From positions 310,001 to 374,000 of the forward strand of contig MU057724.1 in assembly GCA_013265495.1 (NCBI GenBank): a stretch of DNA of 64,000 bases, written 5' to 3'. Both the position numbers and the translations under genes were made by a program. The notes beneath the pieces are model-generated. The model did no database searches and was not told the DNA's origin. It saw only the letters and a program-made list of their open reading frames with translations. Numbering within the stretch: the first letter of the stretch is position 1; the number at the start of each line of letters is the position of its first letter. The stretch is from Vicugna vicugna. Lineage: Eukaryota. Positions 178-62,910 of this stretch are shown one piece after another.

Positions 178-367
178 CTGCTCGCCCGCGCTCTCCGCCA
201 TCCTCATCCTCATGGAGAACCTGCAGCCGGCGATCAGGGACCACACGTCTCCAGCCGGGGCCTGCACGTCCACCTCTTCCCCAGAGCCCCCGTCTCCGCC
301 CGCGTTCACACCGCCATCGTCTGGAAGAAGACTAAGCTTCTCCTCTATTTTGCTGAGAAAGAAACAT
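178..367 (-). CDS. PRKDC: DNA-PKcs exon ~69 (190 nt)
   Basis: CFFLSKIEEKLSLLPDDGGVNAGG...SLIAGCRFSMRMRMAESAGEQ; acceptor gtgtag, donor gtgggc. Confidence 0.95.
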
Positions 368-1839
368 CTACACAAAACAAAGAAGAGTAAGAGTTAGTGC
401 CAGACTCACGAGAGGAGGCTCCGACACACAGGCCGCTGCGGGGCGGGGTCAGACGGAGGGCGCACGGCTGGTAAACCCGCCCTCGTCTTCAGACTAGGAC
501 GCTCACGCCCGCCGCAGGATTCACGCTGCATTCTGACGAGCCAAGTCTTGGAAGATCACCAAGGATATTTCAACAGAATTCCCAGGTGCCATTTATTGCT
601 TCCACCTCCACAAGGTAAAGATTCAGTCACAACCTGCTCTCTTAACAAGCAGACAGCACACTGGGTTGTACGTCAGGTCAACACCGCCTTTCTCCTTTTT
701 TCTCCAAATCTAAGGTCCCCCCCGAAGGTGGACGGTGTCAGCAGCGGACAGGTTAGAGCCACGTGGAATGGCACAGATGAGGCCGCACTGCTGAGAGGCC
801 GTCTGTATCACAACCCACACGCCCGACTTGGCTCCGTGACTCTGTTTCCATTATTTTCACGGTCGGTAACACTGACGAGGGGCCTTAACGTGAAAATTCA
901 CCCCAGTGAGTGACCAGCTAACCCTCTGTTCACCCAGGGGCTAGCTCCCATTCTCTCGGGAGCGCTGCGGCATGTCTCATGCCCCCGGGATCTCCCGCTC
1001 CAGTCACGGACCTGCTCTGCGCTCCTCCCCGCCCCCTCCCGCCCAAGGGCCAGGCAAGGGAGCTGGTGCGAACCAGGTACTCGGTACCGCCCAGAGACGG
1101 AGGGGCGGCTGAGGCAGGAGGCTGCGCTGCGGCGTGAACGGGGCTCACGGTTAGGGTGGTGGGGGCCAGGAGGACACGTCCTCTCCCTCTCCCAGGGGCC
1201 TCCTCCTGGCTCTGAAGAACACACTCTGCTCCAGGCGGCCGAGTAAGGAAGCCCCGGGGAAGCAACAAAGTGAACACAGGCAGGACTGTTTCGGCACCTG
1301 CCATTCCTGGGTCAGCCTGGGAGAAGGAAGCCAGGAAGGGCACCCTCTTCCCCAAAACAGCAGAGCCCCGGGTCTGGCCCTGCCCGTGTCCTGCTGCTGC
1401 TAACCAGTGGCAGCGCTGGTCAAAACGCAGCCCCGCGCACCCCGCACTGGCCCACCGGCCGTGGAAGGTTCGCCACCGGACGGGCTCCTGTTCTCTTCCT
1501 TACATGAGGGGCCCTCAACAAGGCCGCCCCGGGGACCAAGGGTCTGACAGTCCCTGAAGCGCAGCGCCTGGAGAAACCGAGCACGGCAGTGGGAACGGGG
1601 TCCGAGCCAGAGAAGGAGCCCCAGCCCCGAACATGAAGCCACAGGGGCCGCAGCGACCGGACGCCATGTGTGCAGAGCTGACTGAGAACTGAACCGAGCC
1701 TGAGGCAGCAGAGAGCAGGACAGAGCCCACGTCCCAGTGTGACCGGGCTGACCGCCTGCCGGGCAGAGCAACTAATGTCGTCCTGGGAGCCGCACAGGGA
1801 CTCGGAGTCCACGCCAGGGAACATCCACATTTGCTACGA

Positions 1840-4800
1840 TACAACCCAAAATTAATGGATGTTCAAAGAACCAAGGAAACGTATCCATTTTCAGTGGAAA
1901 GGACAAGGAAGCAGGCATCAACTCCAAGCTGACCCACAGGCTGGAAGGGTCGTGTAAGGGCCCTAACACAGCTATTTTAACTATCGCCAATGAGCCAAGA
2001 AAATACACACGGAATAAATGAAAAGGCAGGGATCTCTGTAGAGAGAGAGTGTAACAAGAGCTAAATGGATATTTTATTGAAAAATACAATACCTGAAATA
2101 GAACATTCACTGGACTGACTTAAGAGGAAACAACAGTGCGTCAGAAGGCAGCCCGACAGAGATGACGTGTCCTGAAGGGCGAGGGGAAACCAGACTGAAG
2201 ACAAGTGAAGAGAGCCTCGGGGTCTCACATGTGTGTGACTGGCATCCCACAGAGAGAGAAAACCTGGGGCAAAAGACCCTGAAAAACAGTAACAGAAAAC
2301 TCCCCAAATTTGGGGACATAGAGGCACAGATTCAAGAAGCTTAGTGAAGCTCAAACTGGATAAATCCTGAGGGAAACGCAAATCAAGACCACAGCGAGCC
2401 ACCACCTGACACCTGCCGACTGGCTGTCACCAAAAAGACCACAAGCACCACGTGAGGCGGGGGCGTGGGAAAGGGAGCCCACGGGCACCGCTGGTGGGGT
2501 GTGCACCTTGCAGCCCCTGTGGGAGACAGCAGGGAGGGGCCTCAAGAAGGTGAAAACAGAACTGCCACGTAATCCAGCAACCCCGCTGCTGGGTGTTCAT
2601 CTGCGAAAAACAAAAACACTACTTTGAAAAGATACACGCACCTCAGTGTTCACAGCAGCATTATTTACAATCGTCATGACATGGAAGCAACTTAGGTGTC
2701 TGTCAGCAGATGAATGGATAAAGCAGATGTGGTGTGTGTGTGTATATATATATGTATATATGTGATGGAATACTATTCAGCCATAAAAAAGAATGAACGT
2801 TGCCAATTGTAGCCACATGGGTAGACTTGGAGAGTATTATGCTAAGTGAAGTAAGTCAGACAAATACTGTATGATGTGGAATCTTAAAAGTACAACAAAC
2901 TAGGGAATATGACAAAAAAGAAGCAGATTCACAGATACTGAGAACAAACTAGTGGTTACCAGTAGGGGGGAGGGGCAATAAAGCGTGGGAGATACAGACT
3001 CCTGGGTGTAAGACAGGCTCAAGGATGTCTTATACAACACGGGGAACACAGCCAATATTTTGTAATAACTGTAAATGGAAAGCAACCTTTAAAAACTGTA
3101 TAAAAACTTAAAAATTTTTTTTAACTTAAAAAAAAGTTTTTTTTGAAAGAATACTATCACAGTTAAGTTGTTAAATCCGGGTGTTACAAGGTAGTTTGTG
3201 TAAGCCTTATGGTAACCACAAAGAATGAACCTGCAGTAGGTACACAAAAGGGTATGATAAAGAAGTCAAGGCACACCAAACAAAAGGTCATCAGATCACA
3301 CAGGAGGAGAGGAGGGGAAGCAGCCAGAGGTAACACGCCCACAGAGACGTCAGAGGACAACCAGCAAAACGGAGCAGTAAGTCCTGACCCGTCGGGAGTC
3401 CCTGAAACGTAAAGGGGTTGGATCCTCCACGTAAGAGACACAGAATGGCTGAGCGGGTAAAACAAGGCCCGACGGCATGCTGCCTACAGGAGACTCACTT
3501 CCGCCGTGACGACAACACCGCCAGAGCAAAGACAAGAAAGAGGTTCCACACAGACAGTGGCCCGGGTGGAGCAGGGTGAGCTGCACCGTATCAGGCAGAG
3601 GAGACTTCACGCTGAGAACAGCAAGAAGACGCAAAGAAGGTCCTTTCATGACGATACGGGGCCAATCTGTCAAGAAAACTTAACGGCTGTAAATACGTGT
3701 GCGCCCGCATCGCGGCACCTGCGTGTACCAGGCAAACACGAGCACAGCTAGCAGGGAAAACAGCAACGCAGTGACGCTCGACACCCCACATCCAACAAGG
3801 GACGGGCCTCCCGACAGAGAGTCGGTGAGGAGACAGCCGGCCCGAACAGCACTGCAGACAACACGGCCCCGACAGACGTACGCACAACAGAGGAGACAGA
3901 GGATGCGACCAGTTCCACGCATGCAGGAACCGCATCTGACGAAATTCAACACCCGTTCATGACAAAACAAAACTGTGAGGAAACCAGTATGCGAGCAGCA
4001 AATAGTTGGAAAGTATAAGAAAAACTCTCCACTTACAGCATTAAACACTGAGGAACAAATCTGGCAAGAGACATCGAAGACCTCCATACTGAAGAACACA
4101 AATCACTGAACTTAAACAGGACCGAAGTAGACAGACACGCCCCACATCCGTGACTTCAAGGGCTCCGTGTTGTTGGACGGCAGTTCCCAAAGCCGACCTA
4201 CACTCGGTCAGATCCCAAACTCTGGGTTTTGGGTTTTTTGGGTAGAAACTGACAAGCAGATTCTAAGATGCATCTATAACTACAAATAAAAGAAAAGCAT
4301 TTTTTATAAAGAAAAGCAGAGTTGGAGAGCTCACCCCCGCCCTGTCTGCGTCAAGTGACAGTAATGAAGACAGTTTGATCTTGTGAAGAGAGATGCAGGC
4401 AAGTCAAGGAACAGAACGCAGCGCTCAAAACCAGACCACACACACGTGGTCACCGATTTTCAGAAAACGGTGCCAAAGGCCACTCAATGGCAACAAGGAA
4501 GACTTTCGAACGAGTGGGACTAGACAAGCAGATAGCCACGTGGAGACAGCGGACATCTACCCCCATCTTGTACCATCTACAAGAACTACGTTCTGCTGGA
4601 GCATAGACCTAAATGGTAAGAACTAAAACTAACATTTCTAGAAGAAAACAGAAGGGAGGACTTCTGCAAGACGAGCCTGGAGTACCAGCTCGAGGGGTCT
4701 CCCACCAGCCACATCCGGGACAACCTGAACACGAAATAAATACTACATTCCACGACATAAACTGGAATCCATGCTCCTGCGTTGATAGTTAACACTTGAG

Positions 4801-61536: not shown

Positions 61537-62815
61537 CTGCACACAACAAGAAGGTGAGCTTTCGGGGAGGGCCAGCGGGCGCACTGACAAAGAGGGTCTG
61601 TGGGTTTACAGGCCTACTCTTTTAATTAAAGAGATGATTTATTCAGAACAGTTCATACGCTTCCATCCCTCAAAATATGAAATTTAAGTAAGTGAGTTAC
61701 ACTGCACATCCAAAAACGAAACCCGTACTGAAGACGCACAGGCAGTACCCGCAGCCCCCACGCGCGGCTCTGCGACCGAGAGGCCTTGCAGGTGTTATGA
61801 GCCCCACAAAGCAGGCCAGAGCCTGTGTACTTCCATCCACCATATTAGGGGTGCAAGTCCCTCGAGCTCCGCTTCCTCTCACATAGGTTAAACCATATCA
61901 CAGCTCAGTGACACGGCTCCTGCAGAGGAGAACAGGAATAAGCAGCAACGCCACCCACAGAGGCCTGGGGCCGCTGAGGGGAGGGGCCTCGCACGGCTCG
62001 TTCTGACCTCTACTCCCCAGGGGAAGGGTTCTTCCTATGCCTTTGAAATACGGTACTGATTTTTCAGAGCAAAGCTTCACTGTCTGAGAAAATTCACATA
62101 CACATGCTGTTGAAATAAAGTAACTCTTAAGCCACTGACGTCAGGACTGAGTCTCACGCATCTCTGCTCACAGCAGGGCTGCCAGCAGGAAGGACAAGAG
62201 AGCTTATTAATCTGTCTGTCTCACCTGGTGAGAGGGGGCTGCGTGGCCGCTGCTGTGAGGTGTGGGCCCGGCCCGACCTACCCGCAGACTGCGTGGGGAC
62301 CGCCGCCCGCCCAGAGACCCAGAGGTACCAGTAAAGACTGTAACTTATCACTCCTCAGCCACGTTAGCCTACTCCTGACCTGGTATTTTAAAATCACGTC
62401 TTACATACGGTCAAAACAGCACAACCTTGCGACGAAACTGCTACTTTCTTCACTGAGGTCAGGAGCGGGCAGGAAGCCCTGACCACATCTTCGAGGTCAC
62501 GACCTTCCTCACCTTGTGCAATCTGCATTTTCAGTCGTGTCACCACAGCCACGGGCCAGCTTCACCGGAGCATCACAGAAAACCGCCCCGCGCCCTCGGT
62601 GGGGCCCCCCGCCAGGGGCTGAGCTGAGGGACCGCTGGGGCACGTGGCGCCTGGGGGAGGAGGCCCAGAGGCCCCACACAAACCGGGTCTGGGAGGGAGG
62701 GCGCGTCTCCCTTGCGTTCATTGCCCTGGCCAGGGCACAGCACCCCGGGGCCCCGGGAGGAGCTCTCACCCGCCCGTAAGGCGGGCGGGCGGCACACGGC
62801 GCAGGCGAGACTTAC

Positions 62816-62910
62816 CCAAGGACTTCTCGTCCGCGTGGGCCAGGGCCAGGCTCTCCATGAACGTGACCAAGGCCTCAAACACAAACTGTTCCACCAGAGC
62901 CTCTTCCTCC
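62816..62910 (-). CDS. PRKDC: DNA-PKcs exon ~28 (95 nt)
   Basis: [31 protein letters not shown]; acceptor ttgcag, donor gtaagt. Confidence 0.96.

Follow-up and report, generated by a model that had tools for sequence, protein, structure and literature searches.

Several described systems, cited here from the available parts of the publications, come close to the locus studied. In gerbils, high-GC regions and gene clusters have undergone a regional, clade-wide GC rise attributed to very high recombination, with raised rates of both AT-to-GC and GC-conservative nonsynonymous changes (Pracana et al., 2020, PMC7403616). The PRKDC gene of cetartiodactyls, which encodes DNA-PKcs, is similar in these respects, with high recombination as the likely cause here too. 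Unlike the gerbil genes, it shows no rise in G/C-to-A/T (strong-to-weak, S>W) replacements, reaches a fraction of G/C-ending codons (GC3) of 0.73 and belongs to large-bodied ungulates and whales; the comparison covers this one gene. The accelerated exons biased towards A/T-to-G/C (weak-to-strong, W>S) changes, which give the appearance of positive selection (Berglund et al., 2009, PMC2631073), share with PRKDC a W>S-biased replacement excess that extends to flanking non-coding DNA, but they are single exons on one short branch, whereas in PRKDC the whole 4,100-residue protein and five deep branches are affected.

Exon- and lineage-specific GC-biased gene conversion (gBGC) episodes with later compensation, in a sample including Cetacea, also comprise bursts of nonsynonymous W>S changes (Riffis et al., 2025, PMC12290510; bioRxiv 10.64898/2026.10.02.756222). 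Unlike the PRKDC process these are short and punctual, and the available main text of the preprint does not mention PRKDC. Subtelomeric landscapes resemble PRKDC in that GC and GARP residues rise, FYMINK residues fall and the proteins diverge more (Huttener et al., 2019, PMC6636035; 2021, PMC8336415), but as signals of 101-gene windows and not of a single gene. The available main texts name neither PRKDC nor artiodactyls, and in the supplements of PMC8336415 PRKDC figures as accession numbers only. In a literature search with most subscription papers outside its scope, we found no paper in which PRKDC is connected with biased conversion, or with selection in cetartiodactyls, and no published claim of positive selection on cetartiodactyl PRKDC. 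The mechanism is well known; its target, PRKDC, is new and large.

The PRKDC locus

The window (the whole stretch of 64,000 nucleotides of vicugna DNA that was analysed) carries on its minus strand, from 62910 to 178, 42 intact PRKDC exons encoding residues 1091-3246 of the Vicugna pacos (alpaca) protein XP_006204718.2 (P0139). Exon numbers (~28-69) are those of an earlier note on this DNA and are approximate. The spliced frame has no stop in 2156 codons, all 42 acceptors are AG, and the donors are GT in 41 cases and GC in one. The translation is identical to P0139 at 2155 of 2156 residues, and sequence accuracy was judged by this agreement and by that with three Camelus proteins. An assembly error or pseudogene is ruled out by the intact frame, splice sites and protein match. 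Judging by the frame, splice sites and kept kinase residues and phosphosites, the gene is in all probability a functional PRKDC orthologue. Most of one 10-kb stretch was present in 20 of 24 listed sequencing runs. The features are given below with coordinates, strand and, for each exon, the number of G/C-ending codons.

178..62910, minus, PRKDC exons ~28-69, GC3 0.73, intron GC 0.51
62816..62910, minus, exon 28, 26/31
61437..61536, minus, exon 29, 25/32
60098..60231, minus, exon 30, 26/44
57263..57517, minus, exon 31, 70/84
54387..54610, minus, exon 32, 56/74
53697..53902, minus, exon 33, 62/68
53252..53384, minus, exon 34, 34/44
52747..52905, minus, exon 35, 38/53
51859..52062, minus, exon 36, 47/68
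47881..48066, minus, exon 37, 52/62
47377..47481, minus, exon 38, 21/35
46315..46482, minus, exon 39, 49/56
43565..43692, minus, exon 40, 28/42
37262..37469, minus, exon 41, 45/69
34944..35122, minus, exon 42, 40/59
33084..33252, minus, exon 43, 51/56
32826..32891, minus, exon 44, 12/22
31836..31908, minus, exon 45, 14/24
30736..30884, minus, exon 46, 30/49, PQR cluster
30108..30245, minus, exon 47, 39/46
29787..29906, minus, exon 48, 19/40
27960..28100, minus, exon 49, 38/47
27492..27643, minus, exon 50, 25/50
26828..26959, minus, exon 51, 19/43
25815..25926, minus, exon 52, 25/37
23925..24049, minus, exon 53, 31/41
23682..23831, minus, exon 54, 39/49
22497..22670, minus, exon 55, 43/57
21930..22028, minus, exon 56, 27/32
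20660..20867, minus, exon 57, 44/69
18779..18959, minus, exon 58, 56/60, ABCDE cluster
18777..18778, minus, exon 58 splice donor, non-canonical GC (GCGAGT)
17815..18015, minus, exon 59, 50/66
16238..16350, minus, exon 60, 15/37
15030..15161, minus, exon 61, 37/44
13663..13842, minus, exon 62, 50/60
10831..11036, minus, exon 63, 53/68
10071..10209, minus, exon 64, 24/46
9169..9357, minus, exon 65, 47/63
8373..8597, minus, exon 66, 69/75
7536..7644, minus, exon 67, 19/36, 32/36 residues as in human
6092..6203, minus, exon 68, 25/36
178..367, minus, exon 69, 47/63, variable FAT-domain segment

Base composition and its patchiness

GC3 over the 2156 window codons is 0.73 and ranges from 15/37 to 56/60 per exon, a heterogeneity (chi2 188, df 41, p 9e-21, 42 exons) that persists when only unchanged codons are counted (chi2 177). 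The earlier hand counts for exons 58 (56/60) and 67 (19/36) were exact, the 32/36 identity of exon 67 to human was confirmed against the human PDB chain, and the human exon-69 peptide given there is the one in the PDB. The CpG observed/expected ratio of the whole window is 0.56. GC per 500-bp bin varies with an SD of 0.083 versus a binomial 0.022, so the alternation of GC-rich and AT-rich blocks is real, but the kb scale once assigned to it is not: since autocorrelation vanishes by about 500 bp, the patches are finer. Such sub-kb patches may have been made by short conversion tracts.

Direction of amino-acid replacements

The direction of each change was scored from the patterns seen in extant species, at replacement sites only. 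Of 3169 columns where armadillo, elephant and colugo agree, 467 are different in alpaca, 248 of them by W>S, 50 by S>W and 38 by GC-neutral changes, with 77 mixed and 54 multi-step cases. The excess of W>S over S>W that the earlier note had proposed as a check is clear in the codon-resolved replacements of the window, 183 against 18, the rest of the 325 being 31 neutral, 20 ambiguous and 73 multi-step. Multi-step replacements bring a net GC gain in 58 of 73 cases and a net loss in none. Transversions are biased as well (A>C 29 and T>G 15, together 44, versus C>A 3 and G>T 0). The W>S fraction is 0.80-0.93 in all eight segments of the whole 4,100-residue protein and 0.34-0.54 in 12 controls (horse/rhino, carnivores, pangolin, bats). 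Protein composition differs too, with GARP at 25.4% in alpaca versus 18.9% in horse and FYMINK at 19.4% versus 27.8%.

Compared with the mean of eight controls, W>S replacements in alpaca are 5.3-fold, S>W 0.83-fold and GC-neutral ones 1.95-fold as frequent (W>S against GC-neutral, alpaca vs dog, p 4e-4). S>W counts are flat or reduced, 0.53-0.83-fold, in all four lineages tested. Of 28 camelid-only changes at columns where the other 44 species do not vary, 13 are W>S and 0 S>W.

Clade spread, timing and rate

Changes shared by cetartiodactyls are W>S rather than S>W in a ratio of 39:0, followed by 132:24 for the camelid pattern, 50:17 for suids, 52:11 for whales and 59:24 for ruminants. The W>S fraction is 0.80-0.86 in all 11 non-camelid cetartiodactyls. 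The episode had been described as specific to the camelid lineage, a view that these figures contradict: the process goes back to the ancestor that camels, pigs, ruminants and whales share, and the camelid stem is only where it was strongest. Directionality is gone from recent branches of land lineages and mostly persists on whale branches.

The claimed acceleration of protein change holds. Distances from the bat-ungulate-carnivore node are 0.215-0.274 in cetartiodactyls versus 0.056-0.106 in 12 other species, and PRKDC protein branches are 2-5x longer in 15/15 cetartiodactyls. In this camelid and in the pigs, cattle, deer and whales compared, the gene has evolved at three to four times the rate of horse, dog or bats; these comparisons of rate and direction cover PRKDC as the single gene. 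A long-branch artefact is ruled out by controls (rat 103:132, tenrec 106:95). The rat branch is similarly long (0.25 from the boreoeutherian node), so a long branch is not enough to produce the bias.

A genome-wide rise in GC and protein rate in cetartiodactyls or camelids, not confined to a region, would agree with all 15 cetartiodactyls being affected and with PRKDC being the one gene compared. Across the genome, alpaca and whale branches come close in length to the horse and dog branches and are not three to four times as long, which speaks against such a rise, as do the eight other L1-like pieces in the window with a GC of 34-45%. The available part of the preprint reports fairly strong gBGC in Cetacea, but its introduction describes artiodactyl gBGC as weaker than that of rodents or bats (bioRxiv 10.64898/2026.10.02.756222). 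We consider this explanation very improbable.

Intronic L1 remnant

A dead L1 in intron 68 allows non-coding DNA to be compared.

3406..3606, plus strand, remnant of a dead L1 ORF2 endonuclease, with GC of 0.60/0.57/0.55 at the three codon positions

The GC shift is also seen in non-coding DNA, for a single element: the remnant has 20 GC-raising and 5 GC-lowering changes in 57 columns, versus 708:672 in control fragments, and none of 151 control L1 fragments is as GC-shifted. The test used a profile alignment of the sole stretch above 5 bits among four reported. The neutral test consists of this one 200-bp element, in which the final 30 bases are possibly out of frame, with control fragments of unknown origin. 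A word-based search for intact L1 proteins gave one hit among five candidates, to which 150 fragments from a HMMER library were added. Self-comparison of window repeats gave 17 short pairs of 68-93% identity, too few to polarise, and metagenome scans for mammalian PRKDC DNA gave 0/454 and 12/158 candidate stretches, the 12 being too distant at 56-61% identity.

A regional mutation bias, either more A/T-to-G/C mutation or germline hypomethylation halting CpG decay, would raise GC with fixation itself unbiased. Coding and dead DNA would then be expected to change in the same direction, and both the high CpG ratio (0.84 in the L1 piece, besides the window value) and the raised GC-neutral changes agree with this explanation. 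However, hypomethylation only removes S>W changes and does not give a five-fold W>S rise or 44:3 transversions, and S>W counts were flat or lower in all four lineages. No regional mutator that affects all four W>S types is known to us in mammals. Mutation bias is therefore an unlikely cause, and conversion bias is probably the one at work. That the W>S changes are shared with dead intronic DNA points to a known side effect of recombination, not to adaptation.

Exon GC3 and protein divergence

Exon GC3 correlates with alpaca-horse divergence (rho 0.47), also with background variability controlled (partial 0.35), whereas dog-horse divergence gives rho 0.13; GC3 and background variability themselves correlate at rho 0.36. 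The proposed correlation thus stands at this level, but for camelid-only divergence it falls to rho 0.29 (p 0.06; partial 0.23, p 0.15). Flanking-intron GC does not predict divergence across the 42 exons (rho 0.07), and W>S replacements within exons are not near GC-ending codons (p 0.35). The weak camelid-only correlation and the lack of within-exon coupling count against the gBGC reading.

Patchiness as the driver of divergence was accordingly only partly upheld: the GC3 correlation is moderate, but the 14 lowest-GC3 exons still show W>S:S>W of 37:8. The same applies to the GC-rich exons named as strongly diverged. Exon 33 differs from horse by 43%, though pig, whale and sheep also do by 38-40%, and in exon 39 camelid-only changes number 11 over 42 scored columns, 8 of them W>S and 1 S>W. 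Exon 69, in contrast, is at the gene average in GC (47/63), and its background variability of 0.29 (dog-horse 0.27) exceeds that of the other 41 exons, while exons 28, 43 and 56 are GC-rich yet little diverged. In exon 66 there are 9 such changes over 55 scored columns, 8 being W>S and none S>W, and exon 42, of only average GC3, has 11 over 52 (9 W>S, 0 S>W), all of these again camelid-only.

Overall, long, gene-wide gBGC is, in our view, the likely best explanation of the PRKDC pattern. From the cetartiodactyl ancestor onward, PRKDC would have lain in a high-recombination setting, presumably at a chromosome end, for tens of millions of years, with meiotic heteroduplex repair favouring G/C alleles. 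The bias would have fixed A/T-to-G/C changes at silent, dead intronic and replacement sites, outpacing purifying selection. The push would have persisted in the stem lineages of camelids, suids, ruminants and whales, most strongly in camelids. Recent land-lineage branches, not being net-directional, may have left it behind or reached equilibrium, and it seems to be still active in baleen whales and Kogia. Many of the changes were presumably mildly harmful and partly compensated.

The roughly two-fold rise in GC-neutral replacements is not predicted by conversion bias alone. Such extra replacements could represent compensation, as in the available accounts of gBGC episodes (PMC12290510; bioRxiv 10.64898/2026.10.02.756222).

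Phosphorylation sites and protein function

Two altered sites are located in the window as follows.

310..312, minus strand, GGT (Gly) in place of human S3205, reachable from AGT (Ser) by a single A>G step
18861..18863, minus strand, codon GCC, Ala at human T2620

S3205 is a target of ATM after damage and of PLK1 in mitosis, with no known function according to the part of the source available (PMC4069685). It is retained in 33/33 other mammals and lost in 15/15 cetartiodactyls, which makes a natural loss-of-site experiment. In the camelid ABCDE cluster (exon 58) S2612-Q has become S-L, T2620 is Ala and S2624 is deleted, with a shifted T-Q (T2618-Q2619) directly upstream of the Ala, while T2609, T2638 and T2647 are retained. 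S2029, S2041, S2053 and S2056 of the PQR cluster (exon 46) are kept, as are T3950 and the checked kinase residues, those past 3246 being read from P0139 and not from the window.

Altered phosphosites would also fit a divergence driven by positive selection on DNA-PKcs or by a relaxation of its constraint, with an incidental GC shift. Otherwise invariant columns are indeed altered more often in alpaca (99/1741) than in twelve controls (18-46), and the available part of one source cites PRKDC as positively selected in bats (PMC13238605). However, selection on residues gives no reason for the 183:18 ratio, the GC3 of 0.73 or the shifted dead L1. The frame, S2056, T2609, T2638, T2647, T3950 and the checked kinase residues are kept, and conservative replacements make up most of the 240 camelid-only changes (K>R 21, I>V 20, V>A 11). 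Selection or relaxation is therefore hardly a credible driver.

If gBGC is indeed responsible, this essential and very large DNA-repair and V(D)J kinase has been reshaped by a non-adaptive force throughout an order to which most livestock and the whales belong, and scans for selection on DNA repair in these animals should therefore control for GC bias. As to the setting, we tentatively suggest, as a possibility we would not favour, that in the ancestor of the cetartiodactyls a rearrangement brought PRKDC to the recombining end of a chromosome. Conversion bias would then have rewritten about one fifth of DNA-PKcs and removed phosphosites non-adaptively (S3205 order-wide; T2620, S2612-Q and S2624 in camelids, with the shifted T-Q compensating), stopping where the locus became internal (cattle, pig) and continuing in whales. 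The interstitial position of cattle PRKDC today, at BTA14 19.5 Mb (PMC10606632), counts against a chromosome-end setting. If the rearrangement scenario holds, the NHEJ kinase of livestock and whales would be naturally S3205-null and partly compensated, and an "adaptive DNA repair" signal at whale PRKDC would be an artefact.

The W>S pattern is not unique to cetartiodactyls, since PRKDC of shrew (218:74), treeshrew, pika and loris has a W>S excess as well.

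The PRKDC gene and its base composition

Aligned to the Vicugna pacos DNA-PKcs protein P0139 (XP_006204718.2), the window contains 42 PRKDC exons on the minus strand, from 62910 to 178, labelled 28-69 after the numbering of the earlier note. Acceptors are AG, 41 donors are GT and one is GC. The spliced reading frame lacks stops and differs from P0139 at 1 of 2156 residues, and one window exon, searched by itself, matches human DNA-PKcs in PDB and a dromedary protein at 97%. The homologue set consists of 120 full-length proteins from a longer search plus cluster members (camelid, suid, whale, ruminant, primate, equid). 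The database protein P0034 (JGI) joins a start that we take to be SEC63-like to a carnivore-like DNA-PKcs segment and is probably an assembly chimera.

The GC donor belongs to the most GC-saturated exon and may be a T-to-C derivative of GT:

18777-18778, minus strand, GC splice donor (GCGAGT) at the end of exon 58

Intron 53 (23832-23924, minus strand) has just 93 bases and is open in frame, giving 31 extra residues if read through.

GC3 is 0.73 overall and uneven between exons (chi2 188, df 41). Codons ending in G/C number 56 of 60 in exon 58 and 19 of 36 in exon 67, exactly as counted in the earlier note, which was also right about the 32/36 identity of exon 67 with human and about the human exon 69 peptide. 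PRKDC introns in the window have a GC content of 0.51 and a CpG observed/expected ratio of 0.54. Variation of GC among 500-bp bins is almost four times binomial, so the proposed patchiness is real, but not its kilobase scale: the autocorrelation, 0.45 at 100 bp, has dropped to 0 by 500 bp, and the patches are therefore sub-kilobase. L1-like sequence (eight pieces, GC 34-45%) makes up part of the AT-rich patchwork. Short SINE-like copies, mutually 72-84% identical, are located at 41184-41437, 34689-34794, 21119-21207 and 60671-60739, and tandem repeats (a CA-rich array and six copies of a 15-bp GC-rich unit) at 44903-45031 and 50824-50915.

Rate and direction of protein change

Distances were taken on a fixed species tree from an alignment of 48 proteins, one per species, picked for coverage among 238. 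Counted from the bat-ungulate-carnivore node, camelids lie at 0.270-0.274 and pigs, whales and ruminants at 0.215-0.248; the 12 controls, which are perissodactyls, carnivores, a pangolin and bats, lie at 0.056-0.106. Stem lengths are 0.083 for cetartiodactyls and 0.177 for camelids; the perissodactyl stem measures 0.020 and the carnivore stem 0.031.

From the genetic code, each replacement was assigned to one of five classes: W>S (A/T to G/C), S>W (the reverse), GC-neutral, mixed or multi-step. Only columns in which named living outgroups agree were used. The alpaca protein differs in 467 of 3169 columns, with 248 W>S versus 50 S>W changes; relative to eight controls, W>S changes are raised 5.3-fold and GC-neutral ones 1.95-fold, while S>W changes stand at 0.83-fold. 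The camelid bias is present in all eight protein segments. Read with the window codons, 325 replacements comprise 183 W>S and 18 S>W changes; a further 31 are neutral, 73 multi-step and 20 ambiguous. Among transversions, W>S outnumber the reverse by 44 to 3. No such bias accompanies the long branches of rat and tenrec; the shrew (protein P0128) has both a long branch and its own excess (218:74, W>S:S>W), and treeshrew, pika and loris (P0101, P0116, P0118) show milder ones.

The W>S push claimed in the earlier note is thus evident, but it is not camelid-specific. The W>S fraction is 0.80-0.86 in all 15 cetartiodactyls versus 0.34-0.54 in the 12 controls, and changes common to alpaca, pig, gray whale and sheep are 39:0 (72 differences in 2534 columns). 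Camelid-only changes are 132:24 (240 differences in 2891 columns), and suid, cetacean and ruminant ones are 50:17, 52:11 and 59:24, respectively. All of these counts are for PRKDC; a genome-wide effect in the clade seems to us a very improbable source of the pattern.

Recent branches are unlike the stems: alpaca has 11:16, Camelus 11:8 and seven pooled land-lineage tips 85:126. The three whale branches give 120:52 (mysticetes 38:11, Kogia 61:26 and delphinoids 21:15, the last not significant). Camels and llamas split about 17 My ago and the camelid lineage is about 64 My old; with these approximate times, the rate on the camelid stem was roughly 4-5 times that on the alpaca tip. The parity seen on the tips is compatible both with an end of the process and with a GC content at equilibrium.

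Exon GC3 and divergence

At exon level (42 exons), GC3s and alpaca-horse divergence are correlated (rho 0.47, p 0.002; partial 0.35 controlling for background variability, with which GC3s itself correlates at 0.36), whereas GC3s and dog-horse divergence are not (rho 0.13). This supports in part the proposal that patchiness drives divergence. However, the correlation is weak for camelid-only changes (0.29, p 0.06), as it is for orangutan divergence (0.28, p 0.07), and the 14 exons of lowest GC3 still show 37:8. Alpaca exon GC3s predicts pig, whale and sheep divergence equally well or better (0.48-0.58), which suggests an old pattern common to them. Flanking GC was not found to predict divergence of the 42 exons, nor was finer coupling found inside exons (p 0.35). 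Exon 69, put forward as a GC-rich example, is average in GC3 and ranks first among the exons in background variability. The W>S episode is gene-wide, extending beyond the GC-rich exons to which it had been attributed.

A dead L1 and the likely mechanism

Intron 68 contains a neutral control:

1960-4660, plus strand, old fragmented L1 (ORF1-like, 3'-end and ORF2 pieces, GC 0.40-0.56), the dead ORF2 endonuclease piece being the part tested

In 57 scored columns, the endonuclease piece has 20 GC-raising and 5 GC-lowering changes versus 708/672 in controls (p 0.004), and none of the 151 control fragments is as GC-shifted, the comparison being of one element with L1 fragments from unspecified other genomes. 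Its GC by codon position is 0.60, 0.57 and 0.55. Selection on DNA-PKcs cannot account for this shift, and we consider selection a most unlikely source of the PRKDC pattern. Mutation bias is slightly less improbable, though still unlikely. The pattern is probably best explained by long, gene-wide GC-biased gene conversion; the observations supporting it are the direction, rate, spread and timing of replacements and the neutral shift. As further parts of this account we infer recombination, chromosome position and a fixation bias.

PRKDC, SPIDR and TBC1D31, all on cattle BTA14, presumably come from the two ends of human 8q; PRKDC would then adjoin an evolutionary breakpoint, which would be compatible with an earlier terminal position. 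In cattle, PRKDC is interstitial (BTA14 19.5 Mb; SPIDR lies at 19.4 Mb, TBC1D31 at 16.6 Mb; PMC10606632).

The PRKDC pattern works like gerbil high-GC regions (PMC7403616), W>S-accelerated exons (PMC2631073), gene conversion episodes with compensation (PMC12290510; bioRxiv 10.64898/2026.10.02.756222) and subtelomeric Gly/Ala/Arg/Pro landscapes (PMC6636035, PMC8336415). PRDM9-independent hotspots at hypomethylated DNA (PMC11161765) might stabilise it. The mechanism is already known; for PRKDC as its target, no published account was found in the literature searched, and supplements or subscription papers may contain one.

Phosphosites and protein consequences

Camelid DNA-PKcs keeps T2609, T2638, T2647, S2041, S2056 and T3950 (human numbering), as well as the kinase domain residues K3753, D3922, N3927 and D3941, which we take to have catalytic roles. 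The 33 non-cetartiodactyls share 1421 invariant columns, and six of these are altered in all 15 cetartiodactyls: S3205, retained in 33/33 other mammals, and L1538, E1640, K2366, Y2572 and F3768 (numbered by a 4128-residue monkey protein). S3205 is replaced by Gly in camelids, whales and ruminants and by Asp in suids. It is described as an ATM and PLK1 site that can be ablated without radiosensitivity (PMC4069685; PMC8305690).

312-310, minus strand, codon GGT (Gly at S3205) in the window sequence
18855-18884, minus strand, ABCDE cluster as altered in camelids: Leu after S2612, T2620A, three residues around S2624 deleted, new T-Q at 2618-2619

Within this cluster, replacement of T2620 by Ala and deletion of S2624 are seen in no cetartiodactyls other than camelids, which share the loss of Gln after S2612 with the fallow deer and have gained a T-Q (2618-2619) two residues upstream of 2620. 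Since rodents and pika also vary at the minor sites (S2612-Q, T2620, S2624), these evidently tolerate change. A five-residue deletion just after 3205 (exon 69, 178-367, minus strand) is common to pig, whales and ruminants and absent from camelids, in line with camelids branching first.
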